From assembly GCA_910586825.1 (NCBI GenBank), contig CAJUJF010000010.1:5589-69588 (forward strand): 64,000 bases of DNA. The letters are read 5' to 3'. The position numbers and the translations under genes are program-made. Numbering within the stretch: position 1 is the first letter of the stretch; every line of letters starts with the position of its first letter. This DNA is from an uncultured Christensenellaceae bacterium. GTDB lineage: Bacteria > Bacillota > Clostridia > Christensenellales > Borkfalkiaceae. The notes beneath the pieces were generated by a model. The model had not been told where the DNA came from. It did no database searches and worked only from the letters and a program-made list of their open reading frames with translations. Below are positions 17,053 to 42,626 of this stretch, one piece after another.

Positions 17053-17502
17053 TTATTCAAAGACGCGCATTCCCTCGTCTTGCAAAACCGGTCCCGTCAT
17101 TTTGATATCGATATTGATTTCCGATAAAGCTTTTTCGTAGTCAAGCGGTTTATAATCATTCGGCGTTAATAATGAAAACTTTTGATGGGAAACGCCGAAA
17201 ACTACGTTTTTAATTCCCAACGACGCAATCGCCGTTAAACAACGCTCGCACGGCGCAAAGCTTGTATAAAAAATCGCTTCTCGCAAAACCTCGTCGGAAT
17301 ACTTGTTTGCGCATTTATGTACCAAATTAAATTCCGCGTGTCCGAATAAACCGTTTATATGATCTGCGGTATTTTCGGCTTCTTGCAAAATATTTCCTCG
17401 ATATACGATTACCGCGCCGAAAGTATCGTAACCTTTTTTTTCCGCCGAGATTGCAAGTTCTAAGCAACGTCTCATATATTGTTCGTGTTCTTTCATTTCC
17501 AT
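17053..17502 (-). CDS. CMP/dCMP-type zinc deaminase (guanine/cytidine/tRNA-adenosine deaminase family)
   Basis: H-A-E motif (GHAEFNLV) and P-C-x-x-C motif (APCERC), at 149 aa. The gene is visibly AT-richer than its neighbours. Confidence 0.8.
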   Translation of the reverse strand: MEMKEHEQYMRRCLELAISAEKKGYDTFGAVIVYRGNILQEAENTADHINGLFGHAEFNLVHKCANKYSDEVLREAIFYTSFAPCERCLTAIASLGIKNVVFGVSHQKFSLLTPNDYKPLDYEKALSEINIDIKMTGPVLQDEGMRVFE

Positions 17503-17605: not shown

Positions 17606-17695
17606 TGGCGCAGAGAAAGGGATTTGAACCCTTGGATACATTCCTGCATCACACGATTTCGAATCGTGCGCGTTCGACCGCTCCGCCATCTCTGC
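17606..17695 (-). tRNA. tRNA-Ser (anticodon CGA), CCA encoded
   Basis: The reverse complement folds as a class II tRNA. Acceptor stem GCAGAGA/TCTCTGC. Anticodon stem-loop CACGA-TTCGAAA-TCGTG gives anticodon CGA. It has a long variable arm, T-arm AAGGG-TTCAAAT-CCCTT, discriminator G and CCA. Confidence 0.9.
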
Positions 17696-17777: not shown

Positions 17778-17810
17778 TAAAAAACTTCCTCTCCGTCACC
17801 GAAGAGGAAG
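17778..17810 (-). terminator. Intrinsic terminator ending the giant-gene operon
   Basis: Minus strand reads CTTCCTCT-TCGGTGACGG-AGAGGAAG (8-bp perfect stem), followed by TTTTTT. It starts 12 nt after the stop of the 849-aa gene. Confidence 0.65.
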
Positions 17811-17821
17811 CAAAATTCGTT

Positions 17822-20371
17822 TTATTTTTTGATAGCGGCGTTTTCAGCGTCGTCGATGACCCGAATCAGCCCGCGGGCGATCAATTCTTCGGTCGTGGAA
17901 TACGGTTCGGCGTAATCAACGGATTCGTGTTCTATCCGCACTAAGCCGTGTTCCGAAAACACCGTTTCGATCAACTGCTTTGCATAATCGAGCCTGCGAT
18001 CGGTCTGCACGCGATAAAGCAGAGGCGTTTTGGTGTTCTTACTCGTAAGCGACAGATCTTCCACCTTGTATTTCGTATTCGCATAACGCGCGGGATCGGC
18101 ATTCAAGCAAAGACACAGCGTTTCCCCGCGGACGACGATCGTAGCAAGACTGACTTTTCCCTTGCGGAAAGATTCGCGCTTCCAATAAACTTTATTGCGC
18201 ACGCCGCGGAAGGAGAAAATGCAATTCTTTAACGCCGAATAACGCTCTTTCAACCCCTTGTCGCCCTGCGCGACGTAAGCCGTAAGACTGACGTTGTACC
18301 GCACGACGTTGCCCGTTTCAGTCACGACGATTTCCGCGGCGTCCTCGTTCTCCTCCTCGTTTTCCGAAAACAACACCGCGAGAGGAATTTCTTCCGCCTC
18401 TACCTGTTCTTCCGACTCTTCCTCCTCCGGAACGGGCGCGGCTTCCGCCACAACGACCTCTTCCGCCGCCTCTTCGGGGAAAATTTCCAAAACGGGAGTA
18501 TCGTCCTCGTCTTCGATCGTCATCTGTGAAAACGGTTCCCCGAACAAAGTCTCTTCTGCGATCGGCTCCGCTTCTTCCGGTTGCGATTCCGATTCGGTGA
18601 CGGTCTCTTCTTGCGTATCTTCGGGAACGGGTTGTTCGACAACGGGCTCTTTGGGCTTTTCCGGTTCGGAAAGCGTTTCTTCCGCGTGCGCGATTCCCCC
18701 GAACGGCGTTCCGCCCTCTCCCATCACTTTGATCAGCTCGCGTTCGATCAACGCTTCCGTCGTCTCGTACGGTAATCGGTAATCCTCCGTTGCCGCTTCC
18801 GCCAAGCGCTCGATCCCCAGCTCCTCCATCATCCGATCGATCAGATCCTTCGCGTAACCCACCCGCCGTTCGTTTCTGATCTGATACAGCAACGGCGTTT
18901 TCGTCTTGGGACTGCGGATCCGCAGATCTTTTACCTTGTACTTCGTCTCCTCGTATTGATTCGGTTCCGTCGCGAGACACAGACACAGCGTCTTTCCGCG
19001 GATCGCAAACGTTGCGACAGTCTGTCTTCCGCAATGGAAACTATCCCGTTTCCAACTGATCCTGCTCTTTACTTTCTTATACGAAAGCAGGTAGTTTTTC
19101 AGTTCCGTGTAACGCGCTTGCAACACGTCGCCGCCCTGAATGAGCCGCGCCGTGAAACTGCGGTTATAGCGCAGAACCCGACCCGTTTCCGTCACGACTA
19201 CTTCGACCTCTTCCGTCTCCTCGTCGGCGAAGTCTGCAAGCGTCGCATCGTCCTCTTCTTCCTCTTCCGCCGTTGTTTCGGCAACGGGTTCCTCGGACTT
19301 TTCCGGTTCGGGAAGCGTTTCTTCCGCGTGCGCGATTCCCCCGAACGGCGTTCCGCCCTCTCCCATCACTTTGATCAGCTCGCGTTCGATCAACGCTTCC
19401 GTCGTCTCGTACGGTAATCGGTAATCCTCCGTTGCCGCTTCCGCCAAGCGCTCGATCCCCAGCTCCTCCATCATCCGATCGATCAGATCCTTCGCGTAAC
19501 CCACCCGCCGTTCGTTTCTGATCTGATACAGCAACGGCGTTTTCGTCTTGGGACTGCGGATCCGCAGATCTTTTACCTTGTACTTCGTCTCCTCGTATTG
19601 ATTCGGTTCCGTCGCGAGACACAGACACAGCGTCTTTCCGCGGATCGCAAACGTTGCGACAGTCTGTCTTCCGCAATGGAAACTATCCCGTTTCCAACTG
19701 ATCCTGCTCTTTACTTTCTTATACGAAAGCAGGTAGTTTTTCAGTTCCGTGTAACGCGCTTGCAACACGTCGCCGCCCTGAATGAGCCGCGCCGTGAAAC
19801 TGCGGTTATAGCGCAGAACCCGACCCGTTTCCGTCACGACTACTTCGACCTCTTCCGTCTCCTCGTCGGCGAAGTCTGCAAGCGTCGCATCGTCCTCTTC
19901 TTCCTCTTCCGCCGCCGTTTCGATAGCAGCTTCTTCGGGCTTTTCCGGTTCGGAAGCCGAATCGACGACCGGCACCGCCTGAATGGGCGGAACCGCGACT
20001 GCGATCGCTTCCGGCGCGGAAATCTTGGTAACGACTTCGTACTTTTCCGCCGCCGAAGAGATGATATTCCGAAGATCGGAAATCGTCTTTTCTTCCGAAG
20101 CGGCGTACTTTTCGGAATCCTGTACGGCGTTAATGACGCCCTCGACGTTGTCCTTATCGACGCTCGCACCGACGTTCATGTTTCTGAGCTGTTGCATCAG
20201 AATTTCGCGTTCCTGTTGCAACAGCTTGTCGTACAGTTTCCGTTCGCCGCGCTTATTGAAGAAATAGGCGACGACGACGTTCGTCACGATCAGCGCCGCG
20301 ACGACGATCGCCGCGACGATACAGATGATCGTTTGCGTAGGGGTAAATACGGAAGCAAGGATACCGTTCAT
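17822..20371 (-). CDS. 849-aa membrane-tethered protein with three copies of an uncharacterised ~150-aa basic domain separated by acidic linkers
   Basis: N-terminal TM helix (IICIVAAIVVAALIVTNVVVAYFF) followed by KRGERK, which predicts a cytoplasmic body. A coiled-coil segment (LLQQEREILMQQL) comes next. The repeated domain reads RYNRSFTARLIQ...ISWKRDSFHCGRQTVATFAIRGKTLCLCL...KYKVKDL...TPLLYQIRNERRVGYAKDLI. The start ATG overlaps the giant gene's stop (TAATG), and the giant gene's last codons form GGAGGTG. Confidence 0.85.
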   Translation of the reverse strand: MNGILASVFTPTQTIICIVAAIVVAALIVTNVVVAYFFNKRGERKLYDKLLQQEREILMQQLRNMNVGASVDKDNVEGVINAVQDSEKYAASEEKTISDLRNIISSAAEKYEVVTKISAPEAIAVAVPPIQAVPVVDSASEPEKPEEAAIETAAEEEEEDDATLADFADEETEEVEVVVTETGRVLRYNRSFTARLIQGGDVLQARYTELKNYLLSYKKVKSRISWKRDSFHCGRQTVATFAIRGKTLCLCLATEPNQYEETKYKVKDLRIRSPKTKTPLLYQIRNERRVGYAKDLIDRMMEELGIERLAEAATEDYRLPYETTEALIERELIKVMGEGGTPFGGIAHAEETLPEPEKSEEPVAETTAEEEEEDDATLADFADEETEEVEVVVTETGRVLRYNRSFTARLIQGGDVLQARYTELKNYLLSYKKVKSRISWKRDSFHCGRQTVATFAIRGKTLCLCLATEPNQYEETKYKVKDLRIRSPKTKTPLLYQIRNERRVGYAKDLIDRMMEELGIERLAEAATEDYRLPYETTEALIERELIKVMGEGGTPFGGIAHAEETLSEPEKPKEPVVEQPVPEDTQEETVTESESQPEEAEPIAEETLFGEPFSQMTIEDEDDTPVLEIFPEEAAEEVVVAEAAPVPEEEESEEQVEAEEIPLAVLFSENEEENEDAAEIVVTETGNVVRYNVSLTAYVAQGDKGLKERYSALKNCIFSFRGVRNKVYWKRESFRKGKVSLATIVVRGETLCLCLNADPARYANTKYKVEDLSLTSKNTKTPLLYRVQTDRRLDYAKQLIETVFSEHGLVRIEHESVDYAEPYSTTEELIARGLIRVIDDAENAAIKK
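18656..19914. repeat. Near-perfect in-frame tandem duplication, period 642 bp (214 codons)
   Basis: 18656-19272 matches 19298-19914 at an offset of exactly 642 bp. The only mismatch I found is 18670 a versus 19312 g. The encoded protein segments are identical. Confidence 0.9.
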
Positions 20372-23300
20372 TACTCTTCACCTCCCGATTTCTTTGCGCT
20401 CTTTTTCCGCGCCGTTTTCTTCGGCTGTTCCGAAGCGGGTTCCGCTTCGCTTTGAACATCTTCCGCAGACGGTTCCGCCCCTTCGCCCGACTGTTCCGCG
20501 GACGATTCGTTCGGTTCTACGGCTTGATCCGCGGACGGCTGCGCAACGGGCGCTTCCGCTTCCTTTGCGTTCGTTTCCGCGCGCGCCTGAATCGTTTCGT
20601 GGAATTCTTTCGCCGCCGCGGCTTCCGCCGCCGCTTCGACGCGTTTTCTGCGTCTGTGGACGAGATACTGAATTCCGATCGCGATCGCGGAGATCCCCGC
20701 AACGACTCCGAGCGAACTCATGACGATCACGAAGATCGTATCCCAGCCGACAACGCTCCAATCGAACTCGATGGCATCCGTCGTGGAATCCGCCCATTCG
20801 AAGTTAAACGGATCTTTCAGCGTGACGGTGACTTTGAACGTTCCACCGTAACTGATTTCGTTGCCCGCGATCTCCATCGTCGTTTCGTCGAACCCGACGG
20901 GCATATAGCGCAGCATGCCGCCGTTTACGATGAACGTGGAAGTGTTCGCCGTAGGCTTTTCGATCTTCTTGCGCGCGACGTTCCAGACGAGTACCGCGTC
21001 CCCCGATTCGTCAAGTGCAACGCCCTCGTCCCAACGGTAGTTCGACGCGTCGCTGATCCTGAACTTCACGGTATACGCGCCCGCGTTCAACGCGCGAAGC
21101 ACAACGCCTTCCGCCGTCGCGGCATACCCTTCCGTGTAATCGTATACGATCTGCGTACGCGTGTTATCGTATCCACGCACCACCGTCTGCAACAGCGCGC
21201 CCGTGTAAGTGTCGTTCTTGCTTTCGCCTTCCGCAACGACGGTCAGCGAAGGCGCAGACAGCCTTGCCTTTTCGATGACGAATTCCGCCGCGCCGCTCGT
21301 CGCGCCGTTGTAGTTCTCCGTCGGACGGACCTCGACGCGCACGAACCAAATGCCCGCCGCCGAGGGTACGGTCGTCGTCCAGTCGTCGGCATTTGCCTCG
21401 CCCGTTTTACTATAATAATACGTGTAACTGTCCTGATTCGTGAGCTGGGTCTGCGTAGACGGCGCGTTCGGCGCGTTTCCGTACGTCCAGCCCTCGATGG
21501 AGACGTCCTTTCCGTCCGCGGTCGGCACAAAGCTGATTTCACCCTTTTCGATCGTGAACGAAACCACCCGCGTCGGACCGTCTACCGTCGCCCATCTGTA
21601 ATTGTTGAAGTCTTTGAGGGTAAGCGTGACGTCCCAGACTCCGACGTTCACATAGGTAACGGGCGTGACTTCGTAGAGCGCTTCGTAATCGTTTGCGTTG
21701 AGCTCCGGACGAAGTTCGCCGCCGGTATACGTTGCGTTCTTGACCGTGATTCCGGAATTCGCGGCATCGATCACCTTTTTGGAAATCACGTATTCCACGC
21801 CGTTGCTCGCGGTGAGCGTATAATTGCCGGAAACGCTTCCGATCGGCTTCGCAACATAGTTGCCTGCGCGCGTAGGCGCCGCGTCGGTTGCCAGAAGTTC
21901 GGTAAAGCTCCATTCGCCGTCGTTCGAAGTCCCGAAGTAAACGAAGCGGAAGCTGGGAACGATGATGTTTTCGATCTCGGCAAGATTCTTGCCTGCGTGC
22001 GCGCCGTTCGCCGCAACCATGCTCTGCGCGTTGTATGCGGGCGCGATCGCGGCGCCGCCGTATTCTCCGCCGCCGCCCGTGAACTCAACGTTGATTTGCA
22101 ACGGGCTCACGATGTACGCGCCGATTACGGGGAAGGTAACTTCGTAGTTTCCGTTCGAATAGTCCGCCGCGATGCGCATCATGTAGTTGCCCGCGCCGTA
22201 ACTTCCGTTGCTCGCAGGCGCGTCGTACAGCGCGAGCGATTCGTAGATCCGAAGATCCGCGATCTCGTCTCCCGCGACGATGCCGCCCTCGGGATATACC
22301 GTGATCTGTGCGGAAGCGAGGGAGAACGGATCTCCGTATACCGCGTTCACGCTGCCGATCAACACGCTGATCTGCTTCTTGGTTACCGTAAATTCGCCCG
22401 TTGCAACGACGACGTCGTAGTTGTCCGCCGTAATCCCCGTCACGACGTCGTATTCCGTGCCGTAAAAGGTATGTTTGGTGCTTGCAAGGGTGAGCGCGTA
22501 ACTGCCCGCGTTGAGCTTTTCGGGCGTTTCGACGAGCCGATACGTCACGCCGCCGTCGGCATAGCGGAGAACGCTCTCCGTTTCGCCCGCGACAAAGCCC
22601 GCGAATCCGAGCGCGTACTGTTGCGACCCGCCGACGGGATCGAACGCCGTTCCGTACACCGCGGTCGCCGAGGGCGTCACGGTGATCCGCGCGCGGCGGA
22701 TTTCGAAGTCGAATTCTTCGCCGACGGCGCGCGTTCCCTCCGTCCCCGCATAATAGTTGTTCGTCGCAGGGCTTACCGCGCGCACTTTGTAATTGCCCGC
22801 CGCAACGGGTTTCCGCGTTGACCAGACGCCGTCCGCGAAATACTCGATTACGATTTCGCCGCCGTAAGTCGCTTCCGCCTCGGGCGCCGCGTAATCCTGC
22901 CCGTAAACCAGCGCTTCCAACACCGAAGCGTCGAACCGCGTAACGGCGTGGTCGCTTGCCGCCGCGACCGACCAGACAAAAGTCGCAACGTTGTTCGCGA
23001 GATCGTAGCGCACGCTGTCGATCCCCTCCGTTTCGTCCAGATCGACGAGCATGTAGTTTCTGGTATCGTTCAGACGGAAGGTCACGGTGTAATCCCCGCG
23101 ATCGGTCTGATAGACGATCAAGCCGTTGTTTCTTCCGTCGCCGTCCGTCGTCGTCTGCGAAACGCCGTCGTACACCACGTCGAACAGCGTGAAATTGTAG
23201 GTGAATCTCGTGCTCAGCCGTTCTCCCGTAAACGTCGGATCGGAAGATTCGACTTTCGGGCGCGACACCGTCGCCTGCGTGACGACGAAGAGCAGATACG

Positions 23301-26300
23301 CATTCGCGCTCGAAATCTCTTCCGTACCGGGATAGTATGCACGAAGCATGTAAGTTCCCGCATTGCGGGGTACGAACGCGGAGAACGTTCCCGCGCCGAA
23401 CGCGGCGACGGGGTCGCTTTCCGTAAGAAGATTTCCGTAATTTGCGAACCCGTCGGGGATCTTGCTCGGATCGACCGACGCGTACGCGAACTGCACGGAC
23501 GAAGACGTGCCGTCCCCTACGTTCTGTAGGCGATATTCCGGCGCGGGGTGAACAACTTCCTTCGGCGTATACTGCCAGCCGGAATAGGTGAGCACGAGGA
23601 ATTTCGCCGCCGTTGCGGAGAAGCGCACGCTCGGCATCGTGACCTGATCGGTCCCGAACGTGTAGTTGTTCCTGGCGCCGTCCTGCAATCTCACGACGAG
23701 ATAATACTCACCCGTACCGTAGACGCGGATCGTAAGACCGTTGTCCGATTCGTGATAAGTGCCGTCGGCCAGCGCGGCGATATCGGCGACCGAAACGAGG
23801 TCGTATGCCCTATCTTTGTCCGGACGGTACTGGATGACGACGGGTTCCATGATCGCCGCAATGTACGAAGGCAGTTCCAGAACCTTTTTGCCGCGATCCT
23901 TTTCTTCGTCCCAGGCGTAATAGGATCTTCCGTCTTCGGTGGTACCGTAGTTCGTCCAGTTCAGACTGAGTTCGCGCTGCAATACCGCGTAGTTCAGCGT
24001 TTCCGAAGTCTTGGGCGTACTGCCCGTTTTATCGGATACGGACACGACTTTATAGTCGTAGTTTCCGCTCTCCGAATTAAGCGTCACGGTCACGGTATAT
24101 TTGCCGACGCGCGTAGGACCCTGATTCGGGATCGCGTCGCCCGTTCCTTCGCGGTACGCATAGCTGTAAGAAGCGATCTTCGGCGCGATCGCCGTCGCAT
24201 TGGCGACGACTTCGTACCCGTCGGTCTTGATATCCGTTCCTTTGACCGCGCTTCCGCCTTCGTAATACACGCCCGCATTGTTGATGCCGTAAAGCTCGTT
24301 GCCGCCGAAATCTTTGAACACGATTTGCGCGGCGTGATTTCTGCCGGAGGCGCCGCCCTTGTAGTTGAAACGGTCGAACACTCCCGACTCCGAGACGATC
24401 GACTCGGCATAGTTTCTGTCTTCCGTTTCCGCAGTGACGAGACGGGACACAACCGTCATTTCCGCGGGCATGAAAGTCGTTTCGTTGCTCCAAGTGCCGT
24501 CCGCGTTCATGACGTTAATCGCATAGTTGGAGAACGTGACGCCGTAAGGAATCACTTTGTATACGGAACCCGCGTGACTGTTCCACGCCGCATAATTCTC
24601 CTCGCCCTTTCCGGAAACCAGCTCGGTACGGAATTGCAAACTCCCCTGCATCTGATTGCGGTTGCCGAGGAATTCGTACTCGTTCCCCTCGTCGTGCTGC
24701 CAGCCGTAATAACGAACGGTAAAATAGCTGTCGCGCCTATCGTCCAACTTCACGGTGTTTCCGTAAGTGATATTGAATTCGCGGAATTTGCCGAGCGAAG
24801 CCGCGTCCTCCCGATCGACGGAAACGGTCTTGTTGTCGCCGTTCATGCCGACCGAACCGGCATAGACGTAAAGCTGCGCTTTTTCAATGCGGAACGAAGG
24901 CATGTTCGTATTCGAATCCCCGTGTTCGCCCGCAAAGATCGTATCGCCCGCCGCGTTCTTGAACGTCGCGCGATAATTGGATTCGCCGACGTGCAGCGTC
25001 ATCACGTAGTCGCCCGCGTTGATCGCGGAAGTGCCGCCGAAATCCAAGGTCAGTTCGAAGAGATCCGCGTAATTTTTGGAAGCGTCCCCCGCCGCCGCGC
25101 CATACCATTTGCGCGAAGAATTCGGATCCTGCGGCGCAAAGAATTTGTCGGCATACGCGCGGTAATCCACCGTCTGCGCAAGACCCGTGTAGATCTTTCT
25201 CGCCCAGGCGTAAGTCGAAGTATCGTCTTTGTCGTAACCGTTTACGATCACCGTGATTTCGCGGCGGTTTACCGTGAGCCGACCGTTGGCGTCGCCGGAT
25301 GCGGCATTGTAAGTGACGTCGTAATTGTACGCCCAAAGCCCGCCCGGCAGAACGTACAGCCCCGACGCGCCCGCCTGCGATTTTGCGGGATCGTATTGGG
25401 GTGCCGTAAAGACAGGCGCGTTCGTGAACGAACCTGCAAACGCCGCGTTTTCCGCCGCGATTTTATCGAGCGTCTTTTGCGTGAGCGAGAAGCCCTGGAA
25501 GAGCGCCGCCGCTTGCGCGTCCGCCTGCTGAGAGGCGTTCCCGATCGGCGTGCCGTACTGCACCCATGCGTCTTTCGCGGTCACGTTGAACGTGTCGGGA
25601 AGGATCGTGAATGTGAAGGAAATCGCGCCGTCTTTCAGATCCGCGCCCATTTCGAACACGTAGTTTTCCATGTCCGCGCCGAGCGACAGCGTTACCGTAT
25701 AAGTACCCGCGTTCTTTGCCGAAAGCGTGAATACGTATCCCGCATAAGTACCGCCGTACGTGGATTCGAGGCTCAGACTTCCGAACGCCGCCGATTCGGA
25801 AGCATTCAGTGCGCGGCGCTGCGCGGAAACGGCTTGCGCGAGATTCACCGCCTCGCTGCCGACGTAGTTCCCGAACGTATAGGTGAGCGTATAATCGTTG
25901 TCCGCTCCCGCGCCCTTGTACTTAAAGGAATTGTCGTTATAAGCCGCCGCGCGGACGCGATCGGCGCCGTCGATTTGGACGGAAGCCCGCAACGGCCGTT
26001 TTGCAATGTTGATCGTAGGATTGCTCGCGCCGCCCGGATTCCAAGTGAAATCGGGATTGTCTACCACGAAACGGTATTCGTATCTGCCCACGTTGACGGG
26101 ATCGGCAGTCCAATCCTCCGCGCCCGAACCAGCAATACGGTACTGCGCGTTGATCACAACGCTGTACTTCTCGTCCGCGGGCTGCGCGGTATAGCCTTTG
26201 GATCTTCCGTCGTAATACATCGCATCGGTGTCGCCGTCCGCATAAGCCTGATAGGTGCCGTCCGCCTTGCGGTAACTCAGATCGGAAGACGACATTCTCA

Positions 26301-29300
26301 GGTCGGCTTTTTCGATCGTATAAGTCCCCGCGGGATAGACGCCGCCTTCCGGCGCGCCGATGACGGTTGCCGTCGCGGCGAGTTCGCTATGATACCCCGA
26401 CACGAAAATATCGGAGAAATTCCAAGCCGCATCGCCTTTATGGAAATAATCTTTCACGGCGGCTTCCGTATCCGGATCGCCCGTATAAACAGTCTCGACG
26501 GTGATCGCGTAATTCTTTTTCGCCGCCTCGTCTTGATAGAGCGCGAAGATCGGATAGTTGCCGACGTTCTGCGTGCGGATTTCGTTTGCAGACGCGTTGA
26601 GAATCGCGTTGGTGCGCAGTTCCACGACCGCCCGCGCGGCGTTGTCGTACACCCCGTTATAGGGCGCGGCGACGCCGTAGAAAGGCGTACCGGTAAGCGC
26701 GCCGTATTCGAGTTCCGAACCGAGCGCGGCGGTAAACGTAAGTTTCTGTTTCCCGCCCGGCTGACCGTCCGCAATGCTCGTTCCCGACGCCGCGTTGTAG
26801 TCGTAACGGCTCGTCTGACTTTCGATCCGAATGACGATCGGACGAGGCAACACGTGAAGCGTGCCCGTCACGTTCTCCTGTACCGAAGACTCCGCCGTGT
26901 AAGAAGCGTTCAGATGCACGGTATAATTGCCGTACTTGTCATTCGGCTCACCCGCGACCGCGCTGACCGTATAGTCCGCAACGGGACTGCCAGCGTCCGT
27001 ATAGCCCGCCGCCGAAAGCGAATAGGCAAGCACTTCGTTAAACCCGTCCGGCGTGCCGTCTCCGTCGCCGTCCGCAAGTCCGTATACCTTGACCGAAGCG
27101 ATCAGATCGGGCTTTTCGCCGTAATATGCGTACGAATCCCCCGTCCAGAGATACAGATCTCTCTTTCCGATGCTGAAATAACGGCTCGCTTCCGGAGTCT
27201 CGCCGTAATCGGCGGTGCCTTCCAAGATATAAGAAACTTTATAAACGCCCGCGTTGAACGAACCGCCCGAAAGCAGCGCTTTAAACAGCGCGTCGATGTC
27301 CGACGAAGATTCTCCGAGCTGTTCCCATGCGGAACCGTTGTAATAGAACACCGTGTAGACGATCGCGTCCGCGCGGTCGCCGCCGAGCAGCGTCGCGGGC
27401 TTCGTGATCCGATGATCGCCCTCCGCGTCATAACCGTCAGCAACGCCGTTCACACCGTTTACGCCGTAAATCCAAGCGTACAGATCGCGAACCGTTTCGA
27501 GGCTTTCGCCCGTCTTTTCGTTATGGAAATCGAATCCGCTCGTGAACGCGTTCTGCGCCTGCGTGATTCCGATCACGCCCGCAGGCGCGCCGATCGTCTG
27601 TCCTTCCGTCAGCGTACCGTCCGTAACCGTTCCGGAATATTCCGCGCCGTCGACCGCGAACGTAAAGTCGTAATTGCCCGAAAGCACGACTGCATACAGC
27701 GGATAAACGCCGACCCCCTGCGTGGCGGCGATCGTATCGCCCGTCAGCGTAAACGCCGTCGTCCGAAGCATCGCGATATCCGTCTGCGCGTCGGGAAGCG
27801 CCGATACCTTTCCGTCCGCCGCGGAACCGATTTCGAACGCGACGTGAGAAGCGTTCTGCAATATCGAAACGTCTTTGCCCACATAGTCGGGACTCATGTA
27901 ATTCACGTCCGAATTGCTCTTGATCGTAACCGTTACGGGCAGTTTGCGGATATGAAGCGCGCCTTCCTGATAAGTGAACGTATAATTCAGCGAATCGAGC
28001 GTAAAGCCGTCCGATGAAACCGCGGTCGTATACCCTTTTCCGACGGGATTCCGATTCCCCGCCGCCATCGAAGTCGTGAAGCCGAACGAACCGCTCAACC
28101 CGTTGATCGTACCGTATGCAAGCCATTTCGCTTCGTCGTTCCCGACAAAGCCCGTGACCGAATATATTCCGGCGGGAAGCGGCTCGCCGTCCGAAATCGT
28201 GACCGTTGTCGCGGGATTCTTTTCTCCGTAATACAGCGCGTGATCGCCCGTAAAGTTTACGGTGAGCGTAAGCTGTGCCTTGGTGATTTCGACGCGCACG
28301 CGGATCGGCGCGCTGTCGGCGTGGTTGGGCGCCGTCGCCTTGACCCAATAATAGGTTTCGCTCATAGCGTCGGCAACTTTGGCAGGGAAGTTTCCCCACG
28401 CGGACGAAGCCGCGGGCGGCGTATCGGACGATCCTTTCGCATACTTCCACACGACGGGATTTTCCGCCGCGTTCCAAGCCGTCGCGGCGACTGTGATCAT
28501 GCCGCCGCCGTCGTCTTCGGAAAGCCAAGGATAGCCCTCCGACCCTCTGTACGGTTTCGTCTGACCGTCCGCGTTTACGTCCCCGAGCGCGGCGGGCGTG
28601 ACCGTATACACCCCGAGTTCGGCGAAGTCTCCGTCCGATACCGCGGCGGACGATACGGTGATTTCGTAGTTGGCGTTCGCCGTTTTCGTCAGACGCACGG
28701 AATATCCGCCCTCTTTCACCGCAAGCCAGGTGCTATCCGTGACGTTTTCCGCGTCCGAGAACAGCGAGAGCGTGAAAATCTTATTCGGTGTATCTTGAGG
28801 AACCCGCCAATCCGCGTCGCTGCCCGCGCCCTTGTTGGTCCAGACGACCGAATACGCGTTCGAAAGGTCCGCCTTTTCCTCGCGGTATTCGTGCGATTTT
28901 TGCGATTCGTCGCCCGTGATCGAAACGGTGATCTTGCGCGGAACGACTTCGAAGTTTCCGAAATGATCTTCGGTAACCGTGAGTTCGTAATTGGTTTTCC
29001 CGAAATCGGTAAGGACGGGAACGAGTTCGTAATCGCCTACGTTGACGGTCCCGCCGTACACGACGCCCGATTTTCTGACCTCGTACGTCACGATCTTCTG
29101 CGCGGTGTCGTTGCCCGTCTCGCCGTCTGTAAGATCGCCCGCGATCAACTGCAAGCTGCCCGCGACGTAATTCCAACGCGCGGCGGAAGTGTCGATCGCG
29201 TTTCCGTACACGTGACCCGCGACGCCCGTCGTAACGGCGACCCCGATCGCGCGTTTTTCGATTTCGAGCGTTGCGCCGACGCTTGCCGAACCCGTCAGCG

Positions 29301-32300
29301 TGAAATTATCGTTCGAAAGCGAAACGGCGGAGAAAGCGTATGTGTTTGCGTTAAGAGGATAATTTTCCGCCGTATAGTTGAGTACGATCCCGACGGTCTC
29401 CTCCGCACCGCCCGCCGTCTTGGAGGGCGCGTTCGTAACGGAAGCGATCAGACCGTGCCTGATTCCGTCGTAAGTCACCTTCCAAACGGAACCTTCTGAT
29501 TTAACGGACGCATCTCCCGCACTCCATTCGTATTCGATCGCAAGACGCCCTACTTCGAACGTTCCCTCTTTGACCAGCGTTTCCAGCTGACTGCCCATGG
29601 GATCGTCTTGGTCGAATTCCAAACGGACGCTGAATTTATAGCTGCCCGCGTTCCAGGGAAGGAAGTTTACGAGATCGGGATAATCGCTTGCATCCGCCGC
29701 GACGTAATTTTCGCCTTCCTGCTTCACGAGCGAATACGCACCGTCCTGACCGATCTGTACGATGCCGACGATACGGCCTTCCGAATCGGTGAACGTGATC
29801 GTCTGCGTATATTTTACGTTATGATACGCGCCGCCTTCCGGGAGCAACACGCCGTCCGTATCCGTCATCGTCAGCTTGTCGCGCAACACGATCGTCGTGT
29901 GCGCGCCCGCCGCGAAATAGCCGTTGTCGCCGAACGTGTATCCGCCGACCGCGTACTCGATCCGCAGGATCTTGTTCGTGATCGCATAGTTGAGGTAGAT
30001 GCTGACGTTGCCGGTTTCGTATTCGTACTTGGCGTACTCTTTCACGAGACCGCGGTTTTCCGTGTCCGCCGTGTTCTCGACCCATACGTAGTTGAGCGCG
30101 GCATCCGCATTTTTAATTTTCAAACGTACGTAATAGCAACCGAGCGAACTGGGTTTGTCTGCCATTTCCGCGTAAACGAACGGGCTTGCCGCACCGGTTA
30201 CACTGCCGTAAGTGATTTCGAAATCAGAAGAACTCCAAGCCGAGGTCGGGAAACGCAAAGACGGCGTCAATGCGTTTCCGGAGTTGAATTCCATGGTGCG
30301 GTGGGTGACGAACTTGCCGCCGACCTCTTCGCCCAGCATGGGCGCGATAATTTCCTGACGGTTGACGGTGATTTCCGCCGATTCGAATACGTTCGTATTG
30401 CCCGCGTTCGCCCAACAGAAATTGGAATCGTTAATCGTAAACGTTACGGTATATACGCCCGCATTGCGAACGGTCAGCGTCGCCGTATCCAGACTGAAAC
30501 TGCCCTGATCGTCCATCGTGAAATTCTTCCCGTCGAACCGGTACGCGCCTGCGACGCTCGCCGATAACACAGCGGACCAATTCCAGGTATAGCCGGACGC
30601 CATTTCGGGCTTGTTCATCGTAAACTGCTGCGTGATGTTCTCGCCCGTATACGCGGCGGAAGAAAGCCCGCCTTTCAGTTCGGGAAGCGCGATCTGCCGT
30701 TGCGAGATCGTCACTTCCTGATCGATCCCGCTCGCAAGCGAGTAGTTGAACGCGCGGTCGCCCGAGAGTTTGATCGCCGTTGCCGTATACGAGCCGACGT
30801 TCGTCGCGTTGCTCGTTCCGTTCGTGATTCTGATCCCGTCGGCGTCGAATTTTACCGTTGCCGCGGTATCGTTTTTATGCAACAGGCTTTCCGCCTTGAC
30901 CGCGGGCGAGGGAAGTTGTTGCGCGCCGTTATAAATAAACGACACCGTACCCCACTCGATCCCGTCCGCGCCGATTTCTTTTTGCGTGATTTCGAAATCG
31001 TAGGCGAAGCCCGCTCTTTCCGTGCCGTTTACGGACATGCTTGCCTGATATCCGGAAGCCGCTTTCGCCGCGGCGCTCCATTCGAAGTTCGCCGCGGGAT
31101 AGACGTAAACGGTATAGACGCTCACGTCCGTCATGCCTACGGACACGCCCTTGGAATCGGAAGCGCCCGCCGTAAAGATCAAGCCCGCCTGCTCGGTTTC
31201 CGTCTTGCGCACGATATAGATTTCGAGACGGAAGCCGTTCTCGCCGAATTTATAGTCGTTCCAGTTGAAATAATCCGCGCCGAACGTGTACGGCGTACCC
31301 GTGTATTCTTCCGAAAGATCCGCCGCCGTTCTCTGCGGCGCGTCAAGCGCGCTCGGCATGATCGCGAACTGCACTTTCAGACCGCCGTCCGGCAATTTGA
31401 AGTTCAACGCGCGGGAATAGCCGCCGTCCGCCGCGGCGTTCCAGGCGAGCAGTTCGACCCAATAGGTCCCCGCCGCCGTAATGCTGCCCGTAAGCACGCC
31501 CGTGCCGTTTTCGGCATAGTATTTCACCTGTCCCGCCGCCGCAAAGGTAAGCGCGTCGTCCGTGAAATATTTCGAAGCGTCTGGAACAGGCTTATGATCC
31601 GCGCCGTCGAACAGGAACCCGAGCGTCCATTCGAACGTCGTGCCGTCGGAAGCGGAAGTCGGCGGGGTTTTCACCTCGTGCGCCGACATCTCCTTCTGTC
31701 CCACTGCGTACTCGAACGTCACCTGTTCCGAATCGTCGTCCGTATAAGAATCCCACCGATAATTGGCGTTCAGCGTGACGGCGACCGTATATCTTCCCGC
31801 ATGGAGGAAGGAGAATTTGCCGTTTGCATGATCTGCCGCCGTACCGACGGGAAGCGCCGTAGAAGCGCCGTCCGGAATCTCGGCGGTGAGCGGCATCTCA
31901 GCCGTACCGATCACGCCGTCCGCGCCGAACTGAACGCCCGTAACCGCCCAAGTGAGAATGTACTTTCCGCCGTCCGCGGAATGATCTTTCCCCGCGTTCC
32001 AATTCGTCACGGAAATCTCGTACGCCGAACCGTTGTAGATGTCGGAACCGCTCTGCGTGAAAGAAACCTGCGCGATCGATTTTTTGGAAACGGTAAATTC
32101 CGCGTGCGCCGCGGGAAGATTGAAATCCCCGTCGCGGTAATCCTCTATCGCGGATTCAGTTACGTAATATACGACGTAATCCCCCGCGTCCCACGTTCCG
32201 AAATCGGCGGGATCGTATTCCGTCGCGCCTGCGTTCGGAACCCCCGTCGTTGTATTGAACTCGCTCTTGGCATAATATTTGGGATAACCGGAAACGATCT

Positions 32301-35300
32301 GCGCAAAGAAGAGACTGCCCGCCGAGCTTTCCCAATTCGACGAACCCGTATCCGAACAATACTTCACGTCGGCGGTCCCGATCGCGCTCAGCCCGTTTCC
32401 GGAACTGTCTTCGCCGCCGTATACGAAGTTCAATTTCCACGCGCTGTCGATTTTAAGTCCGAGCGAACGCGCGCCGATTTTGAAGCTCTTCTGCACGTTC
32501 CCGTCGGCATCGACGGTTTCGCTGTCCGCCCACTCGTAATTGTTCTTCGCCGCCGCTTTGATTTCCAGCTTCACGCTGTACGTGCCGGCGTGGAGAACCG
32601 TACCGTCCGTTTCGACGACCCCGACCGGAGTCGAAGCGGAATCGACCGCAAGACTGCCCGACACGATCCCGACGACGTCGTCTTTCTCATCGTATTGCGT
32701 GACGATGCCGTTCGCCGTTATGAAATCGGACGGATCGTGCTTTTGATTGTCGAACGTAATATCCTGCAACAGACGGTCGGATTGCAACTTCGCGGGATTT
32801 ACGGTCACGACGGGCGCGCGGAGAAGCGTCTCCGTCGGCGAATCGCTGAAACGGTACGCGTCGGTATCGGTCGCCGAAACGTATACGACGTATTTGCCCG
32901 CGTTAAGATGCTGACCCGCCTGAGAGAGATCGATCACGTTAAGCGTTTCCGTGTCAATATAGTACAGCTTAAATTCGGTGTATACCGTCCATGCGGGAAT
33001 CGACGCGTCGTCGGAGGGCTTTTCCGAGAGCGGTCTCAGCGTATAAGTCGCGTCGCCGAATTCCGTCACGCCCGTCACTTCGGGAGTTTTGGGATTTTCG
33101 CCGTACGTCCAGACCTTGTCTGCGGACGCGTACGAAACGCGGAGATTGAGCGCGAGTTTATCGATCTGAACGGTGTACGTCAGGCTGAGCGATTCGCGTT
33201 CCGCGCCCGAACTGCCCGCGTCGGCAAACTCCACTTCGTCCTTATGCCGTTCGTCGATCGCGATCCTCACGCGGTAAATCCCCGCTTTCCGGAACGAAAG
33301 CGTGAACTTGTGCGCCGCCTTTTCTCTTTCCACTGCGTAGTCTTCCGCGGGGACTTCGTTCCCGTTCTGATGCAAGAGCGTAACGCTCATCGCGTCAAAA
33401 ATATCGTCGGGCAGATCTTTGGCAAAGGTGATCGTCTTACTGGCGTCGGAAGAAAAATTGATCGTGTCCGTGTTGAACGCGGGCAAAGGCACTTCGTACT
33501 TGCTTACGGGAATGTAAATACGGGCGTAATCGTTTTCGTCCGTCGTAAACTCTACCCAATCGGTCGCGTGAGTGTCGTCGTATATGAATTTGAACCTTAC
33601 CGACCCCACTTTCGTCGTCGCATTGTTGTAAAACGCCTTTACGTTCAACGGCGCTCCGGAACAGTCGGTGGAGGTAAAATATTCGATTTCAAAATGGGAC
33701 ATATCCTCCGTAATGAAATCGGAAAGATATGCGTTTCGCGCTTGCCCCGAACCGTATTTCAAAGATACCGTCATCTGTCCGAAATCGAACGGAGAAAGAT
33801 ACTTCTGCACCGGTCCGCTGTCGCCCGTGGCGATATCTCCGACGGTGGTGACGTTTCTGTAATTAATTTTGAATTGCGCCGTACCTTTGACCGTCGGATC
33901 GGCATTGTAAATGAGCGTAACGTTTTTGAGATAGGTATCGCCCGGCATGTGATTGAGATCCGCCGCCGTGGGCGTGAGCGTCCCTTCCAGCGAATAACCG
34001 GTTGCGAGCGGGTTCCAGGCGCCCGAATTGTCGCGCGTTTCCACTTTGCCGTTGAGAAGGTTCTGGACGGCGGGAGTCGTTACGGCTACGTTCGGTTCCA
34101 AAGCCGTGGTCTGGCTTTCGGCAACCCCGAGCGCGCGGATCCCGATCACTTTCGTCGCCTCGAACGGAATCGTAATCGAAGCGGGAACGGATGTGCCGTA
34201 CTGGACGCGGCTCACCTGTACGCCGATCGTGTTGTCCCCTTCCGTAAACGTCTGCGCGTTGCCGAGGGTGACGAATTCGCCCGAAGCCGCCGTCGCGGTC
34301 GTGTTTTGCAAATCGATCCCCGTAAAGTCGACCGTCTTGGCGGAATGCGCGTAATAGACCGAAAGCACGATCGCATTCTGCATGACGTAAGTACGGTTCA
34401 TCGAATCGATAAACGCCGAGAATTTGACGGGGTTTCCGTTTTCGTCGTTTTCGCCTTCGATCGTCTTGGTATAGCGCGCGCCGATTTTTTCATAGGAGGG
34501 GTTTACCTGAAAATCGGCGGCAAGCAACGGCGCCTGCGACACGGAAATGATTTGCGTGGTCGCAGAAACGGAAGCGTCAGCCGCCAGCGATACCGTAACG
34601 GTCACGGGGAAAGAAGAAGCGTCGCTCAGTTCGCCGCTCAACGAGACGTTGTAGAGTTCGCGGTTGGCGATCAGCTCGTACACACTGCCGTCCGTCGTGC
34701 CGTAGACCTTTAAAACGGAGCCGTCCAGCTTTAAGGACTCCGCCGTATAATCGTCGGTCACGCCCGAAAGCACGGCGGTGTTCATCGACGCGTTGCCGAT
34801 CCTGAGACCGGTATAAACGGGTTTCTCGCCCGTTGCGATGGTCACGGAAACTTCGGCTCTTACCTCGCCCGAAATCACGACGAGCGTCGCGCTCTCTTCC
34901 GTAGAGCCTTCCGCAACGATCGGCTCGTTTTTCCCGATCGCCTGCATCGTATTTCCCGCTTTCAGCGAAAGCGTGAATTCTTCGGGCATCAGCGCGATCG
35001 CCTGACCCAATCCCGCGAAGGTACCCGTAACGGATAAGTTTTGTTTAAAGTCTTCCGCAGTCGTGACGCCGGGATAGACGACCGCACCCTGCACGACGGA
35101 AGCGCTCAAACCCGTGTACGCATGTTTCGGCGAAGCGCTGTCCTGTATGATCGTTGCGGGCGACGTGCTATCGGCGCCCGCATTGGAATTTCGCGCGAAA
35201 TTCGGCGCAAGGATCCCCAACGCAAGCGCTAAACATGCAAAAACGGCACAAGCCGCGATTGCGACTTTGCGCCAAAAGGATACGTTACGGTATGTATTCA

Positions 35301-35697: not shown

Positions 35698-36075
35698 TCA
35701 GATGATCACGTTTTCGAGCGCTTCGTCCTCCTGCGCTTTGCGCACGGCCTGCGCGTTCGCTTTCATCGTATCCATTTTTTCGAGCAATTTTTCGCGCTCT
35801 TGCTGCAAACGCTCGTCGTGCAGTTTGCGCGGCGCAAGCGGCGCGGGCGTCTCCGGTTCGGAAACGATCTCGCCCGATTTCATGCCGTCGAGCTGTTTGA
35901 TGAGCATTTCGCGCTCCTCCTGCAATTCGCCGGTGAGACGGCGTTCTACGTTCCGCTTCATGTAAATGATAAACAGCACGTTCATGACCGTAAGCGCAGC
36001 CAAAAGAACCGCAACGATAATCGATACGGCAAGCTGTGCGGGCGTGAAACTGACTGCAAGCATATTCGTGTTCAT
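35698..36075 (-). CDS. Small (125 aa) membrane-anchored coiled-coil protein, paralogous to the N-terminus of the 849-aa protein
   Basis: The ATG at 36075 (MNTNMLAVSFTPAQ) has GGAG 7 nt upstream. It has a TM helix (LAVSIIVAVLLAALTVMNVLFIIY), then KRNVERR, then two copies of an LQ[EQ]ERE-x-L heptad-like motif. Confidence 0.65.
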   Translation of the reverse strand: MNTNMLAVSFTPAQLAVSIIVAVLLAALTVMNVLFIIYMKRNVERRLTGELQEEREMLIKQLDGMKSGEIVSEPETPAPLAPRKLHDERLQQEREKLLEKMDTMKANAQAVRKAQEDEALENVII

Positions 36076-36199: not shown

Positions 36200-36427
36200 T
36201 CAGTCGAGCTTTTCGAGTTCTTCGTTCAGCTGACGGAGATTCTTGCGTTCAAGTTCGATCAGCGTCGAAAAAATCTTGAAATATTCCACGTCCGATTCGT
36301 TGGGCGACGTGTTGTTCAGATACGCTTCGAGCAACGCGGACTGGGAGCGCATGCGCTTCTTTTCAAGGGTCTCGATTTCCTTTTCGCTCTCGCTGATTTC
36401 TCTTTTCAGATCGCTTTTCTTAGACAT
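36200..36427 (-). CDS. Small (75 aa) soluble coiled-coil protein, function unknown
   Basis: Strong RBS AAAGGAGAAAGG 4 nt upstream of the ATG. The sequence is charged and heptad-rich (SESEKEIETLEKK...ELERKNLRQLNEELEKLD). Confidence 0.6.
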   Translation of the reverse strand: MSKKSDLKREISESEKEIETLEKKRMRSQSALLEAYLNNTSPNESDVEYFKIFSTLIELERKNLRQLNEELEKLD

Positions 36428-36473
36428 AACCTTTCTCCTTTCGATTTGTTTTTATTAAAACGGATCGCCGTTT

Positions 36474-36830
36474 TTAACTTAGTTTGCGGATATTTTCCAC
36501 CGCGCATGCATAATCGACGCGGACTTGTTCGAACAAAGGAACGGTTTCCGGCGTATACTCCGTCTTTCCGCGAAGCGCTTCCGTCAGTTTGCTTGCGGAC
36601 TCCTGCAAACGCGTGAGGGATAAGTTCAAGCAAATCCCCTTTAACGTGTGCGCGGCGCGGAACGCCTCCTCCATGTTCTTCTCTTCCAAAGACCGGCACA
36701 GCAGCGCATAACTGCCGTCCTCGGCGACTTTGATCAGAAAGCGCACGATGCGCTCGTCCGATCTCAAACGGCTGAACGCCTCGTCGTAATTGGCGCCCAT
36801 TGCCTCGTAACATTCGCGAACCGTCATCAT
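36474..36830 (-). CDS. Stand-alone Hpt (histidine phosphotransfer) protein
   Basis: 118 aa, four-helix-bundle sized, with the phospho-His motif AAHTLKGICLNL (H-x-x-K-G). It starts 9 nt downstream of the response-regulator gene. Confidence 0.8.
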   Translation of the reverse strand: MMTVRECYEAMGANYDEAFSRLRSDERIVRFLIKVAEDGSYALLCRSLEEKNMEEAFRAAHTLKGICLNLSLTRLQESASKLTEALRGKTEYTPETVPLFEQVRVDYACAVENIRKLS

Positions 36831-36839
36831 CTATCTCCT

Positions 36840-38903: not shown

Positions 38904-38906
38904 GTC

Positions 38907-40334
38907 TTACCCTTGCTTATTGCGTTTCGCCAGTTTTTTGAAAATGACGCTGTTTTCCCTGCCGTACTCCGTCGCCTCGTTGCAGTCCTTATTGAGCTTT
39001 GCGGCGCATTCCTGCGGCGTAAGCCTGCCGGAGAGCAGATTGAATATCCCTTTGTAGAATACGTTTCTGACCGAATTGTCCAACCCCTGCCAGTTGGGAT
39101 TTCCGCGCATGAAATGGATCACGTTCGGAATATTTTTGGTAAATTGATCGATCATGAGCATATTCTGCGCTTCCTGCTGTTCGGTGACCCGTTTGCTGGC
39201 GGAAATACTGCCCGAAGAAACGTTGAGCCATTCCTCGGTCTCGTAGATGAATTTCACGAAATCCTTTGCGGCGGCAAGCTTGCGCGCGTCCTTGTTGTCG
39301 AAAATTTCGAAACCGGTCACAAACCTCGTCGCGATTCCGCCCGTCAGGCTCGGAAAATTGACGTAACCGCATTTCGCGACTTCCTCTTCTCCTTGCAGAT
39401 AAACTTCGCAACCGATATTGAAGACGTAGAACGCGATCTGCCCTTCGTGAAAGAGCCTGTCGCAATCGCTCAACGTAAAATTCTGAGGGTGCGGCATATA
39501 CCAATTCCGCTCGATCCCGCTTTGCAGCCATTCCAATCCCCGCAACGCCTCCGGCTCGTCGAAATGAAAATAGCCGTCGTCGTCGACCAGCGATACGCCG
39601 AACCCGCTGATCAGCGCCATGATGTGCGAATCGCCCTGATTGTCTTTGGCGTACATCATCGTGGGCGCGTATTTTTTATCCGTCTTCTGCGCCATGCCCG
39701 CGCCGAGCGTATCCAGCACGTATTCCCATTCGTCGATGCTCCAAGTCTGAATGATGCCCGTTTCGTCTTCCACGAATTCGTCCAATCCGTATTCGCGGAG
39801 AATCGCCTTATTGTACATGAGAATGTTCTGCCGCCCCAGATACGGCAACATATACACCTCGCCGGCGACCTCTCCCCATTCCACGTAACCGTCTTTCAGA
39901 TCGGCGCGCGCGGATTCGGAAAGCAACCCTTCGAGCGAAATCGCGTTTCCGGAATGCACGTACGTGATCATATTATAAAAATCGTCGTAGAGAACGTCCG
40001 CCGCATCTTCCGTTCCGAACATATCCGTTACGAAGCGTTCTTCTTCGCCGTCCGGAAACATATTCACGGTGATCTCGACCTTATCTTTTTTATACTGCTC
40101 CGTGAACGCCTTTGCGGCAAGCGAGAGGAAATCTCCGCTCGTCGCGATCTCCGCGTTCGAAATTGCCGACGGAGTCGACATACGGATCAGCGGCGTTTTG
40201 ACGTTGATCCGGACGGTATCGTCCCCACCGTCGTTTCCGCAACCGCCGAGCGCAAAAAGCGAGAATCCCAAAACGGCGGAAAGCGCCGTGCAAATAATTC
40301 TTTGTCTTTTCATAAGAAAACTCCTCTTATTCAC
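38907..40334 (-). CDS. Extracellular solute-binding lipoprotein (ABC SBP family 1-like), orphan
   Basis: Lipobox FSLFALGGCGNDGG. At 475 aa it has the size and character of an SBP. No permease or ATPase genes are adjacent. There are 3-nt gaps to both flanking signalling genes. Confidence 0.8.
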   Translation of the reverse strand: MNKRSFLMKRQRIICTALSAVLGFSLFALGGCGNDGGDDTVRINVKTPLIRMSTPSAISNAEIATSGDFLSLAAKAFTEQYKKDKVEITVNMFPDGEEERFVTDMFGTEDAADVLYDDFYNMITYVHSGNAISLEGLLSESARADLKDGYVEWGEVAGEVYMLPYLGRQNILMYNKAILREYGLDEFVEDETGIIQTWSIDEWEYVLDTLGAGMAQKTDKKYAPTMMYAKDNQGDSHIMALISGFGVSLVDDDGYFHFDEPEALRGLEWLQSGIERNWYMPHPQNFTLSDCDRLFHEGQIAFYVFNIGCEVYLQGEEEVAKCGYVNFPSLTGGIATRFVTGFEIFDNKDARKLAAAKDFVKFIYETEEWLNVSSGSISASKRVTEQQEAQNMLMIDQFTKNIPNVIHFMRGNPNWQGLDNSVRNVFYKGIFNLLSGRLTPQECAAKLNKDCNEATEYGRENSVIFKKLAKRNKQG

Positions 40335-40337
40335 GCG

Positions 40338-42557: not shown

Positions 42558-42575
42558 AACCGCTCCGAATAGATC

Positions 42576-42593
42576 TTGCCGCCGCGGCGGCAA
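42576..42593. promoter_or_regulatory. 18-nt perfect GC-rich palindrome in the 5' UTR of the kinase operon
   Basis: TTGCCGCCGCGGCGGCAA lies ~20 nt upstream of the kinase RBS. It could be an RNA hairpin or a protein-binding site. Confidence 0.4.
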
Positions 42594-42626
42594 CTCAACG
42601 ATATCGGGCAAAGCCCGTACATAATT

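Follow-up and report, generated by a model that had tools for sequence, protein, structure and literature searches.

Giant surface proteins are encoded by some of the largest genes of gut Firmicutes, and their anchoring, organisation and synthesis are barely known. Among the closest described counterparts of the protein considered here are Ebh and Embp of Staphylococcus, giant C-terminally anchored Gram-positive surface proteins of similar overall arrangement: an export signal at the N-terminus, a very large repetitive ectodomain, then a C-terminal transmembrane (TM) helix and a charged cytoplasmic tail. To our knowledge, no cytoplasmic module of the kind reported below has been described for Ebh/Embp. 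The locus analysed lies in a 64,000-nt stretch of DNA from an uncultured Christensenellaceae bacterium (assembly GCA_910586825.1, contig CAJUJF010000010.1, positions 5,589 to 69,588; the whole stretch is called the window, and positions are counted from its first nucleotide). There, the gene for a 4976-aa surface protein is followed by one for an 849-aa protein, hereafter the partner. In contrast to Ebh/Embp, the cytoplasmic part of this system is a large, conserved, folded multi-domain module, either fused to the giant or split off as a coupled gene. It is this conserved folded module that is new, a giant anchored surface protein being itself of a known kind; the module is widespread in gut Clostridia and undescribed, and no account of it was found in the searchable literature.

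The reading that we favour, with a probability of roughly 0.55, is that the 849-aa protein serves the giant as its cytoplasmic tail module, encoded by a split-off and translationally coupled gene, and that its basic domains bind a polyanion, most likely nucleic acid.

The giant gene, its partner and their link across genomes

The features that define the gene pair are as follows.

20371-35301, minus strand: giant 4976-aa surface protein, with an N-terminal signal/anchor, a repetitive ectodomain, a C-terminal TM, HRRRKR and a tail of ~95 aa
20369-20386, minus strand: coupling junction GGGAGGTG, read directly from the sequence, with the Shine-Dalgarno at 20386-20379, the giant TAA at 20373-20371 and the partner ATG at 20371-20369
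17822-20371, minus strand: 849-aa partner gene, coding for a membrane anchor and, spaced by acidic linkers, three basic DUF5655/YjbR-like domains (open reading frame, ORF; match to the family hidden Markov model, HMM, E 5e-192)
17784-17811, minus strand: intrinsic terminator with a 12-bp stem, a 4-nt loop and a T-run, 11 nt past the partner stop; operon end

Within TAATG, one base is common to the stop codon of the giant and the start codon of the partner, and GGAGG at 20385-20381, 9 nt 5' of the partner ATG, falls within the final codons of the giant (GGA GGT GAA GAG). A strong terminator follows the partner stop, and partner and giant therefore close one transcription unit. As read from the DNA, the two genes are co-transcribed with coupled translation. 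Such coupling had been claimed in the preliminary description of this locus and is borne out by the overlap, the Shine-Dalgarno and the terminator, as well as by comparable overlaps or tiny gaps at 44 of 79 related loci (see below).

The perfect 600-nt repeat within the partner gene is no product of misassembly, since an identical 849-aa protein recurs on 33 contigs, derived from many samples; no source gives this protein a name. A frameshifted single gene was also rejected, as the overlap frame varies among loci and every partner has its own Met and anchor. For the giant itself, a weak match to MBG_2 was obtained in the ectodomain, and its ~95-aa tail is acidic. Just before its C-terminal TM, at about 20680-20800 (minus strand), stands the pre-anchor motif D.xN[YF]EW.D.[ST]TDA..[FY].W.VVG, which also occurs at loci L010, L013 and L024; its presence in giants paired with a Christensenellaceae-type partner suggests co-evolving cognate pairs.

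Related loci were collected by scanning one genome per species, which gave 299 confirmed matches, and the best 79 loci were analysed. The search pattern was built from 7 closer sequences, so this sample is biased towards close relatives. Hosts were Christensenellaceae/Christensenella, the cultured Pumilibacter muris and P. intestinalis, Candidatus Coproplasma and unclassified Clostridia, together with some metagenome-assembled genomes labelled Erysipelotrichaceae, Anaeroplasmataceae or Bacillales. The module was found in the following contexts.

44 of 79 loci: directly 3' of a large same-strand ORF with a terminal TM helix, most of these ORFs running to 3000 aa or more before the 10-kb flank truncates them
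8 of 79 loci: fused in one ORF, with >600 aa before the anchor
2 of 79 loci: fused to a medium ectodomain
6 of 79 loci: cut by a contig end
19 of 79 loci: other contexts, recurrently after rplI or a SpoIVA-like gene (both named by eye from C-terminal sequences), 13 of the 19 with a uL15-like end

Junctions were mostly of -1, -4, -8 or -23 nt and ranged from -58 to +22 nt (40 loci, under the first strict criteria). Genomes with two giants had two partners (L009/L050 and L038/L055), and the cultured P. muris (strain CLA-AA-M08) has homologous gene pairs, at L009 and L050. The link to giant surface proteins that had been drawn from this single locus thus held when synteny was surveyed, and gene order and ORF structure show a conserved genetic tie between module and giants, with covalent fusions among the examples. 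Among the other contexts, a subfamily with one domain and a uL15-like end lies ~320-360 nt 3' of rplI (L9) at loci L035, L037, L044, L049, L051 and L059, and 120-160 nt 3' of a SpoIVA-like gene of 488-507 aa at loci L039, L068 and L074.

A full HMMER search, using a profile of two distinct copies of the partner's repeated domain against 1.84 billion cluster representatives (50% identity clusters), returned 3123 representatives at E<=1e-3 and 869 at E<=1e-30, most with 2-6 domain copies; a preliminary word-indexed homology search had given 3 fragments only. The family is thus large and unnamed, its clusters all being 'hypothetical' or mislabelled 'ribosomal protein L15' (source names of members are 'hypothetical protein', 'ribosomal protein L15' and 'predicted transport protein'). 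Architectures were counted in the top 150 family representatives. The domains lay behind a hydrophobic anchor in 107, which comprised 39 with >600 aa before the anchor, 9 with 150-600 aa and 59 that, like the window protein, were anchor-only. The fused giants have a total length of 1500-6312 aa and carry 2-3 domain copies behind the TM region. A TM after the first domain was seen in only 1 of the 150, and 43 had no TM or signal sequence.

In alignment, the N-terminus of the partner (xILASxF[ST]PxQ, TM, KRGxxK) runs colinear to the second hydrophobic element plus the final TM of single-chain giants; the window pair is therefore a fission of one functional unit, or the single-chain forms are a fusion of it. 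Adjacency at 44 of 79 loci, fusions, colinearity and coupling together lead us to regard the partner as the split-off tail module of the giant. The family would then be the inward-facing half of many giants, fused or as a translationally coupled gene, and annotators gain a rule for spotting split giant-protein tails.

The preliminary description had also placed nearly the whole partner in the cytoplasm, and four features of the partner and its family concur. In the partner, an uncharged N-tail precedes the anchor and KRGERK follows it. The fusions P0067 and P0069 have an N-terminal signal sequence and a single TM, and their C-terminal domains are therefore inside. In multi-span fusions, K/R-rich flanks occur both after TM1 and after the last TM, which implies a hairpin between them and hence, again, a C-terminus inside, and the 43 relatives without a TM are plainly soluble and cytoplasmic. 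From these features we strongly infer that the partner is held in the membrane by its N-terminal hydrophobic element and that everything after KRGERK is cytoplasmic. An extracellular location was rejected in view of the K/R-rich flanks, the single-TM fusions and the TM-less relatives.

Architecture of the partner and fold of its repeated domain

From its N-terminus, the partner consists of MNGILASVFTPTQ, a hydrophobic stretch of ~25 aa, KRGERK, a conserved LLQQEREILMQQL stretch, a non-conserved region and three domains, laid out as follows.

20258-20332, minus strand: hydrophobic membrane anchor, aa 14-38, after an uncharged 13-aa N-tail with SVFTPTQ and before KRGERK (hydropathy)
20174-20257, minus strand: juxtamembrane segment, aa 39-66, KRGERK-LYDKLLQQEREILMQQLRNM, conserved and probably helical (alignment of Christensenellaceae-type partners)
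19847-19957, minus strand: acidic linker 1, about aa 139-175; net charge -18 over aa 139-184
19334-19846, minus strand: domain copy 1, aa 176-346 (HMM independent E-value, i-E, 4e-67; AlphaFold2 (AF2) pLDDT 92.4; Foldseek matches YdhG, YjbR and DUF5655)
19205-19324, minus strand: acidic linker 2, about aa 350-389; net charge -20 over aa 350-398
18692-19204, minus strand: domain copy 2, aa 390-560, same sequence as copy 1 (HMM i-E 4e-67)
18332-18679, minus strand: long acidic linker 3, about aa 565-680; net charge -43 over aa 565-689
17825-18331, minus strand: domain copy 3, aa 681-849, reaching the end of the protein, with no uL15-like domain (HMM i-E 1e-56)
18640-19925, no strand assigned: 642-nt tandem duplication, two units at 18640-19283 and 19282-19925, 98.6% identical overall

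This layout agrees with the one first described: the 13-aa N-tail, the hydrophobic anchor and KRGERK are all seen in the sequence, each of the three Lys/Arg-rich copies follows an acidic stretch and matches the family HMM far beyond chance, and all of the motifs named earlier were found, with ISWKR[DE]SF reading VYWKRESF in copy 3. An HMM of the juxtamembrane segment matched 31 related loci (L001-L061) and four same-species loci (L080-L083).

Copies 1 and 2 are not independent because they arose with the 642-nt (214-codon) tandem duplication, the interior of which is perfectly identical over ~600 nt (aa 154-353 and aa 368-567 have the same sequence). Between copy 3 and copy 1, identity is 47-48%. 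The duplication is recent and unchanged in the 33 contigs. The number of repeats may vary between strains, as cluster members of 606 and 340 aa exist, although these are possibly fragments.

Domains and linkers alternate in charge. The three domain cores carry +14, +14 and +12, with an isoelectric point (pI) of 10.0 for core 1, while the whole protein is at net -59 with a pI of 4.7. Across 351 copies in the family, the core averages +9.3 +/- 3.8 (98% positive) and the 40 aa upstream -8.5 +/- 6.3 (90% negative). In the AF2 model, the acidic stretch EEVEVVVTETG proved to be partly structural, its VVV pairing with RVLRYN as the first beta-hairpin of the domain.

The domain had initially been left without a family, and sequence searches with the partner were indeed largely silent. 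No Pfam match was obtained for the 849-aa protein at E<=1, no sequence match to PF08818 or PF04237 was seen in it, and nothing was retrieved from the PDB with the whole protein or with a 44-sequence profile, nor by tblastn with the domain from 50,697 phage records. Hits to Csx1_CARF, SAM_PNT and GroES (25 bits against a cut-off of 120) in Pfam, NCBIfam and PHROGs were sub-threshold and were discarded as compositional. Copy 1, modelled by AF2 with 120 homologues, gave a very confident fold (pLDDT 92.4) in the order beta-hairpin, two helices, four-stranded antiparallel meander, strand, long helix and terminal helix-strand. The top Foldseek matches in the PDB were YdhG-like/DUF1801 structures (9t2w, 2oc6, 2kl4 and 2i8d) and YjbR/DUF419 structures (2fki and 2a1v). 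These matches agree with a common alpha+beta fold but are weak (E 0.03-0.6, 11-16% identity, probability up to 0.99), the best YdhG/YjbR ones having E 0.03-0.09, probability 0.82-0.99 and TM-score 0.33-0.53; in BFVD, a DUF5655 protein was matched with E 4.8e-3, probability 1.0 and TMq 0.49.

Sequence evidence from relatives points the same way. DUF5655 (PF18899, gathering threshold 24 bits) matches the first ~60 residues of a domain copy in the sister protein P0007 (E 3.6e-17, 62.8 bits); the window protein falls short of this threshold, and among 44 diverse copies 1 matches (E 5e-4). A single sub-threshold DUF1801 match was found among relatives, in P0012 (23.8 bits against a cut-off of 27.2). 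The PADLOC profiles for the candidate defence protein PDC-S18 match copy 3 at positions 192-299 of 302 (E 2.3e-14) and 197-331 of 365 (E 4.9e-13), and the same C-terminal region is matched by 27 of the 44 diverse copies. As the match is confined to C-terminal positions of PDC-S18, it indicates a common domain and not membership of PDC-S18. With the model and these matches (YdhG, YjbR, DUF5655, PDC-S18) taken together, the domain is best described as a new divergent family in the DUF5655 / YdhG / YjbR (CyaY-like) fold group, without a Pfam entry of its own, so the initial view that it could not be assigned no longer stands.

Several differences set it apart within this group. The likeness to DUF5655 is one of fold, but the window domain is longer (~165 aa), with an extra hairpin at its N-terminus and, at its C-terminus, a helix-strand that ends in LIxxGLIK; the N-terminal ~190 positions of PDC-S18 are missing. 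Unlike DUF5655 and PDC-S18 proteins, the window protein is membrane-tethered, has tandem copies and stands beside a giant surface gene and not in a defence island: its neighbourhood holds the giant gene, a tRNA-Ser gene, a deaminase, a Na/Pi transporter and two-component genes, with no defence-island context. YdhG/Fra, discussed as an iron chaperone, and YjbR/MmcQ are small, soluble, single-domain proteins that resemble the window domain weakly and at the fold level only. A double-wing mode of DNA binding, similar to that of the C-terminal domain of T4 MotA, has been predicted for YjbR (PMC7641849), and this prediction fits the basic hairpin turns of the window domain, where the near-invariant W51-K52-R53, G59-R60 and G70-K71 sit in the model.

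Two architectures among the relatives bear on what the domain may contact. Of the 43 TM-less representatives, 27 share an N-terminal region of ~400 aa that scores above threshold for Pfam DUF2357 and is followed by 2-6 domain copies; they include P0012-P0014, P0024, P0025, P0029, P0053 and 20 more. DUF2357 is the N-terminal domain of McrC that activates McrB, and additional domains on McrBC proteins act as specificity modules (PMC11090510). The likeness of the window protein to these McrC-like proteins is limited to the repeated C-terminal domain, as it has no DUF2357, nuclease or McrB neighbour.

The second architecture is a C-terminal uL15-like domain, found in 56 of the 150 representatives (and, with a tail HMM, in P0176, P0208 and P0260) and in about a third of the related loci (27-30 of 79). 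It matches Pfam PF00828 (E 3e-14), and the AF2 model of P0176 (pLDDT 86) superimposes on uL15 in many ribosome structures (Foldseek E 1.7e-6, root mean square deviation 1.5 A) over ~76 alignment columns with 27-34% identity. Judged by this alignment and model, the end is a genuine paralogue of the globular domain of uL15. It sits at the extreme C-terminus of giants and of anchor-only relatives (P0067, P0095, P0176, L042, L076 and others). In the six-frame translation of the window no tail-HMM match was found at E<=10, and in the window protein only the LIxxGLIK helix-strand that ends each copy recalls uL15.

What the module may do

In the mechanism that we propose, the partner would be anchored by its N-terminal hydrophobic element, with the rest of the chain after KRGERK in the cytoplasm, just as in many other genomes the same module forms the covalent C-terminus of a giant. 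It would associate with the C-terminal TM region of the giant, mainly through membrane and juxtamembrane segments; the fusions and the coupling argue for such an association. Its three basic domains, carried on polyacidic spacers, would bind a cytoplasmic polyanion, most likely DNA or RNA/ribosome, and so tie the anchor of the giant to the nucleoid or to the translation machinery, or report on either. The acidic linkers (40-125 aa) would serve as extended spacers, possibly as competing, autoinhibitory nucleic-acid mimics. For nucleic-acid binding, in which we place moderate confidence, we rely on the charge of the domains, the K/R residues in their hairpin turns, the YjbR-like fold, the sharing of the domain with McrC-like proteins, as tandem arrays, and with PDC-S18, settings in which accessory domains typically recognise nucleic acid, and its frequent pairing with a uL15 paralogue of rRNA-binding type.

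Several observations weigh against this proposal. The module lacks a giant neighbour at 19 of the 79 loci and is therefore not exclusive to giants. The PDB matches from Foldseek are weak (E 0.03, TM-score 0.4-0.5 for the better ones), the fold group also includes proteins that do not bind nucleic acid, such as the frataxin-like YdhG/Fra, and no PD-(D/E)xK nuclease was found by Pfam in the McrC-like relatives. The uL15-like domain is lacking in the window protein, so that the link to ribosomes rests on relatives only. Finally, a nucleic-acid-binding tail on an adhesin is without an established biological rationale.

Basic domains (+9.3) and acidic linkers (-8.5 per 40 aa) alternate throughout the family, and this pattern could serve electrostatic self-assembly, in which the domains bind acidic linkers or tails in trans and build a sub-membrane lattice that clusters the giants and stabilises them mechanically. 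The multivalency of the module (2-6 copies), the acidic ~95-aa tail of the window giant and the paralogous anchor-plus-helix protein encoded upstream (see below) suit such a lattice, yet acidic linkers are just as expected as inert spacers or nucleic-acid mimics, and soluble McrC-like proteins, devoid of any membrane context, bear the same arrays. The tails of the giants speak against it as well. In the 44 adjacent pairs the tail after the TM has a median length of 28 aa (range 1-170), is in many cases 1-10 aa long and is net acidic in only 32%. We therefore regard a lattice as rather unlikely, and the same numbers count against docking on the giant's acidic tail as a general mechanism, which had been suggested from the window alone; contact through the membrane and juxtamembrane segments is likelier. 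The soluble McrC-like members are equally awkward for a peripheral membrane binder, whose basic domains would lie on the anionic phospholipids of the inner leaflet for extra anchoring or membrane sensing. Every copy is highly positive and the module is tethered to the membrane, as this would require, but 40-125 acidic linker residues would push the domains off the membrane and keep them at a distance, and the uL15-like domain of relatives suggests RNA instead; we consider a lipid-binding role very unlikely.

A role in export was considered too, with the domains binding the nascent giant or the translocon and aiding export of a 4976-aa chain. In SCOP, the YjbR-like and YdhG-like superfamilies belong to the 'secretion chaperone-like' fold class; the module is strictly co-expressed with a secreted giant, and the uL15-like domain of relatives could draw ribosomes to the membrane. 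However, in fused giants the module is translated last and can have no cis effect on the chain that it belongs to. The chaperones of type III secretion are acidic and the domains here strongly basic, and the module is also found on McrC-like proteins and at loci that lack a giant neighbour. No conserved Sec or signal recognition particle components were seen nearby, and on these grounds a secretion or targeting chaperone seems a slim prospect. Hardly any credence is given to a frataxin/YdhG-like metal (iron) chaperone or to an extracellular module of reversed topology, although the top PDB match is a YdhG-like 'frataxin' from Listeria and a crude scan reveals two distinct hydrophobic peaks in some fused giants. 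The domain is basic, with no evident acidic ridge, and the DUF1801 match in one relative is sub-threshold; a frataxin-like iron role was rejected for these reasons. Reversed topology is contradicted by the K/R-rich hairpin flanks, the single-TM fusions and the TM-less relatives, all of which put the domain inside.

Returning to a polyanion-binding tail module, a broader and distinctly speculative extension, which we think improbable, is that the giants of gut Clostridia are transmembrane devices whose YjbR/DUF5655-like arrays, often capped by a uL15 paralogue, bind ribosomes/rRNA or DNA at the membrane. If true, one version would be a ribosome or polysome dock for making and exporting chains of >5000 aa; the other, suggested by the domain being common to McrC-like and PDC-S18 proteins, would be a device, coupled to the surface, that senses or traps foreign nucleic acid as it comes in. 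A core domain common to restriction and defence proteins, together with the frequent uL15 paralogue, makes a coupling of giants to nucleic acid or ribosomes testable.

Genes around the operon

Upstream of the giant gene, a further small gene is related to the partner.

35698-36075, minus strand: gene for a 125-aa protein paralogous to the anchor-plus-helix module of the partner, lying 396 nt 5' of the giant gene

The 125-aa protein consists of MLAVSFTPAQ, a TM, KR and the helix motif LQEEREMLIKQLDGMK (LQ[EQ]ERExL) twice, and it is 30% identical to aa 4-123 of the partner over 121 aligned columns (E 3e-14). Its ORF was called as a gene in 472 sample blocks. A homologue search found none outside its own species, and no copy was seen 5' of eight shorter giants from other genomes. 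The protein may form a third component of the system.

Immediately beyond it, on the same strand, lies a signalling cluster (36200-42611, minus strand). It comprises a 75-aa coiled-coil ORF (36200-36427), Hpt (36474-36830), a response regulator with HD-GYP and GGDEF (36840-38903), a solute-binding protein (38907-40334) and a hybrid histidine kinase (40338-42611), and may place the giant adhesin operon under cyclic di-GMP (c-di-GMP) control. On the other side, 3' of the operon terminator, are tRNA-Ser(CGA) (17606-17695, minus strand) and a 149-aa cytidine/deoxycytidylate-type deaminase (17053-17502, minus strand), and the order terminator, tRNA-Ser(CGA), deaminase is kept in every same-species contig examined.

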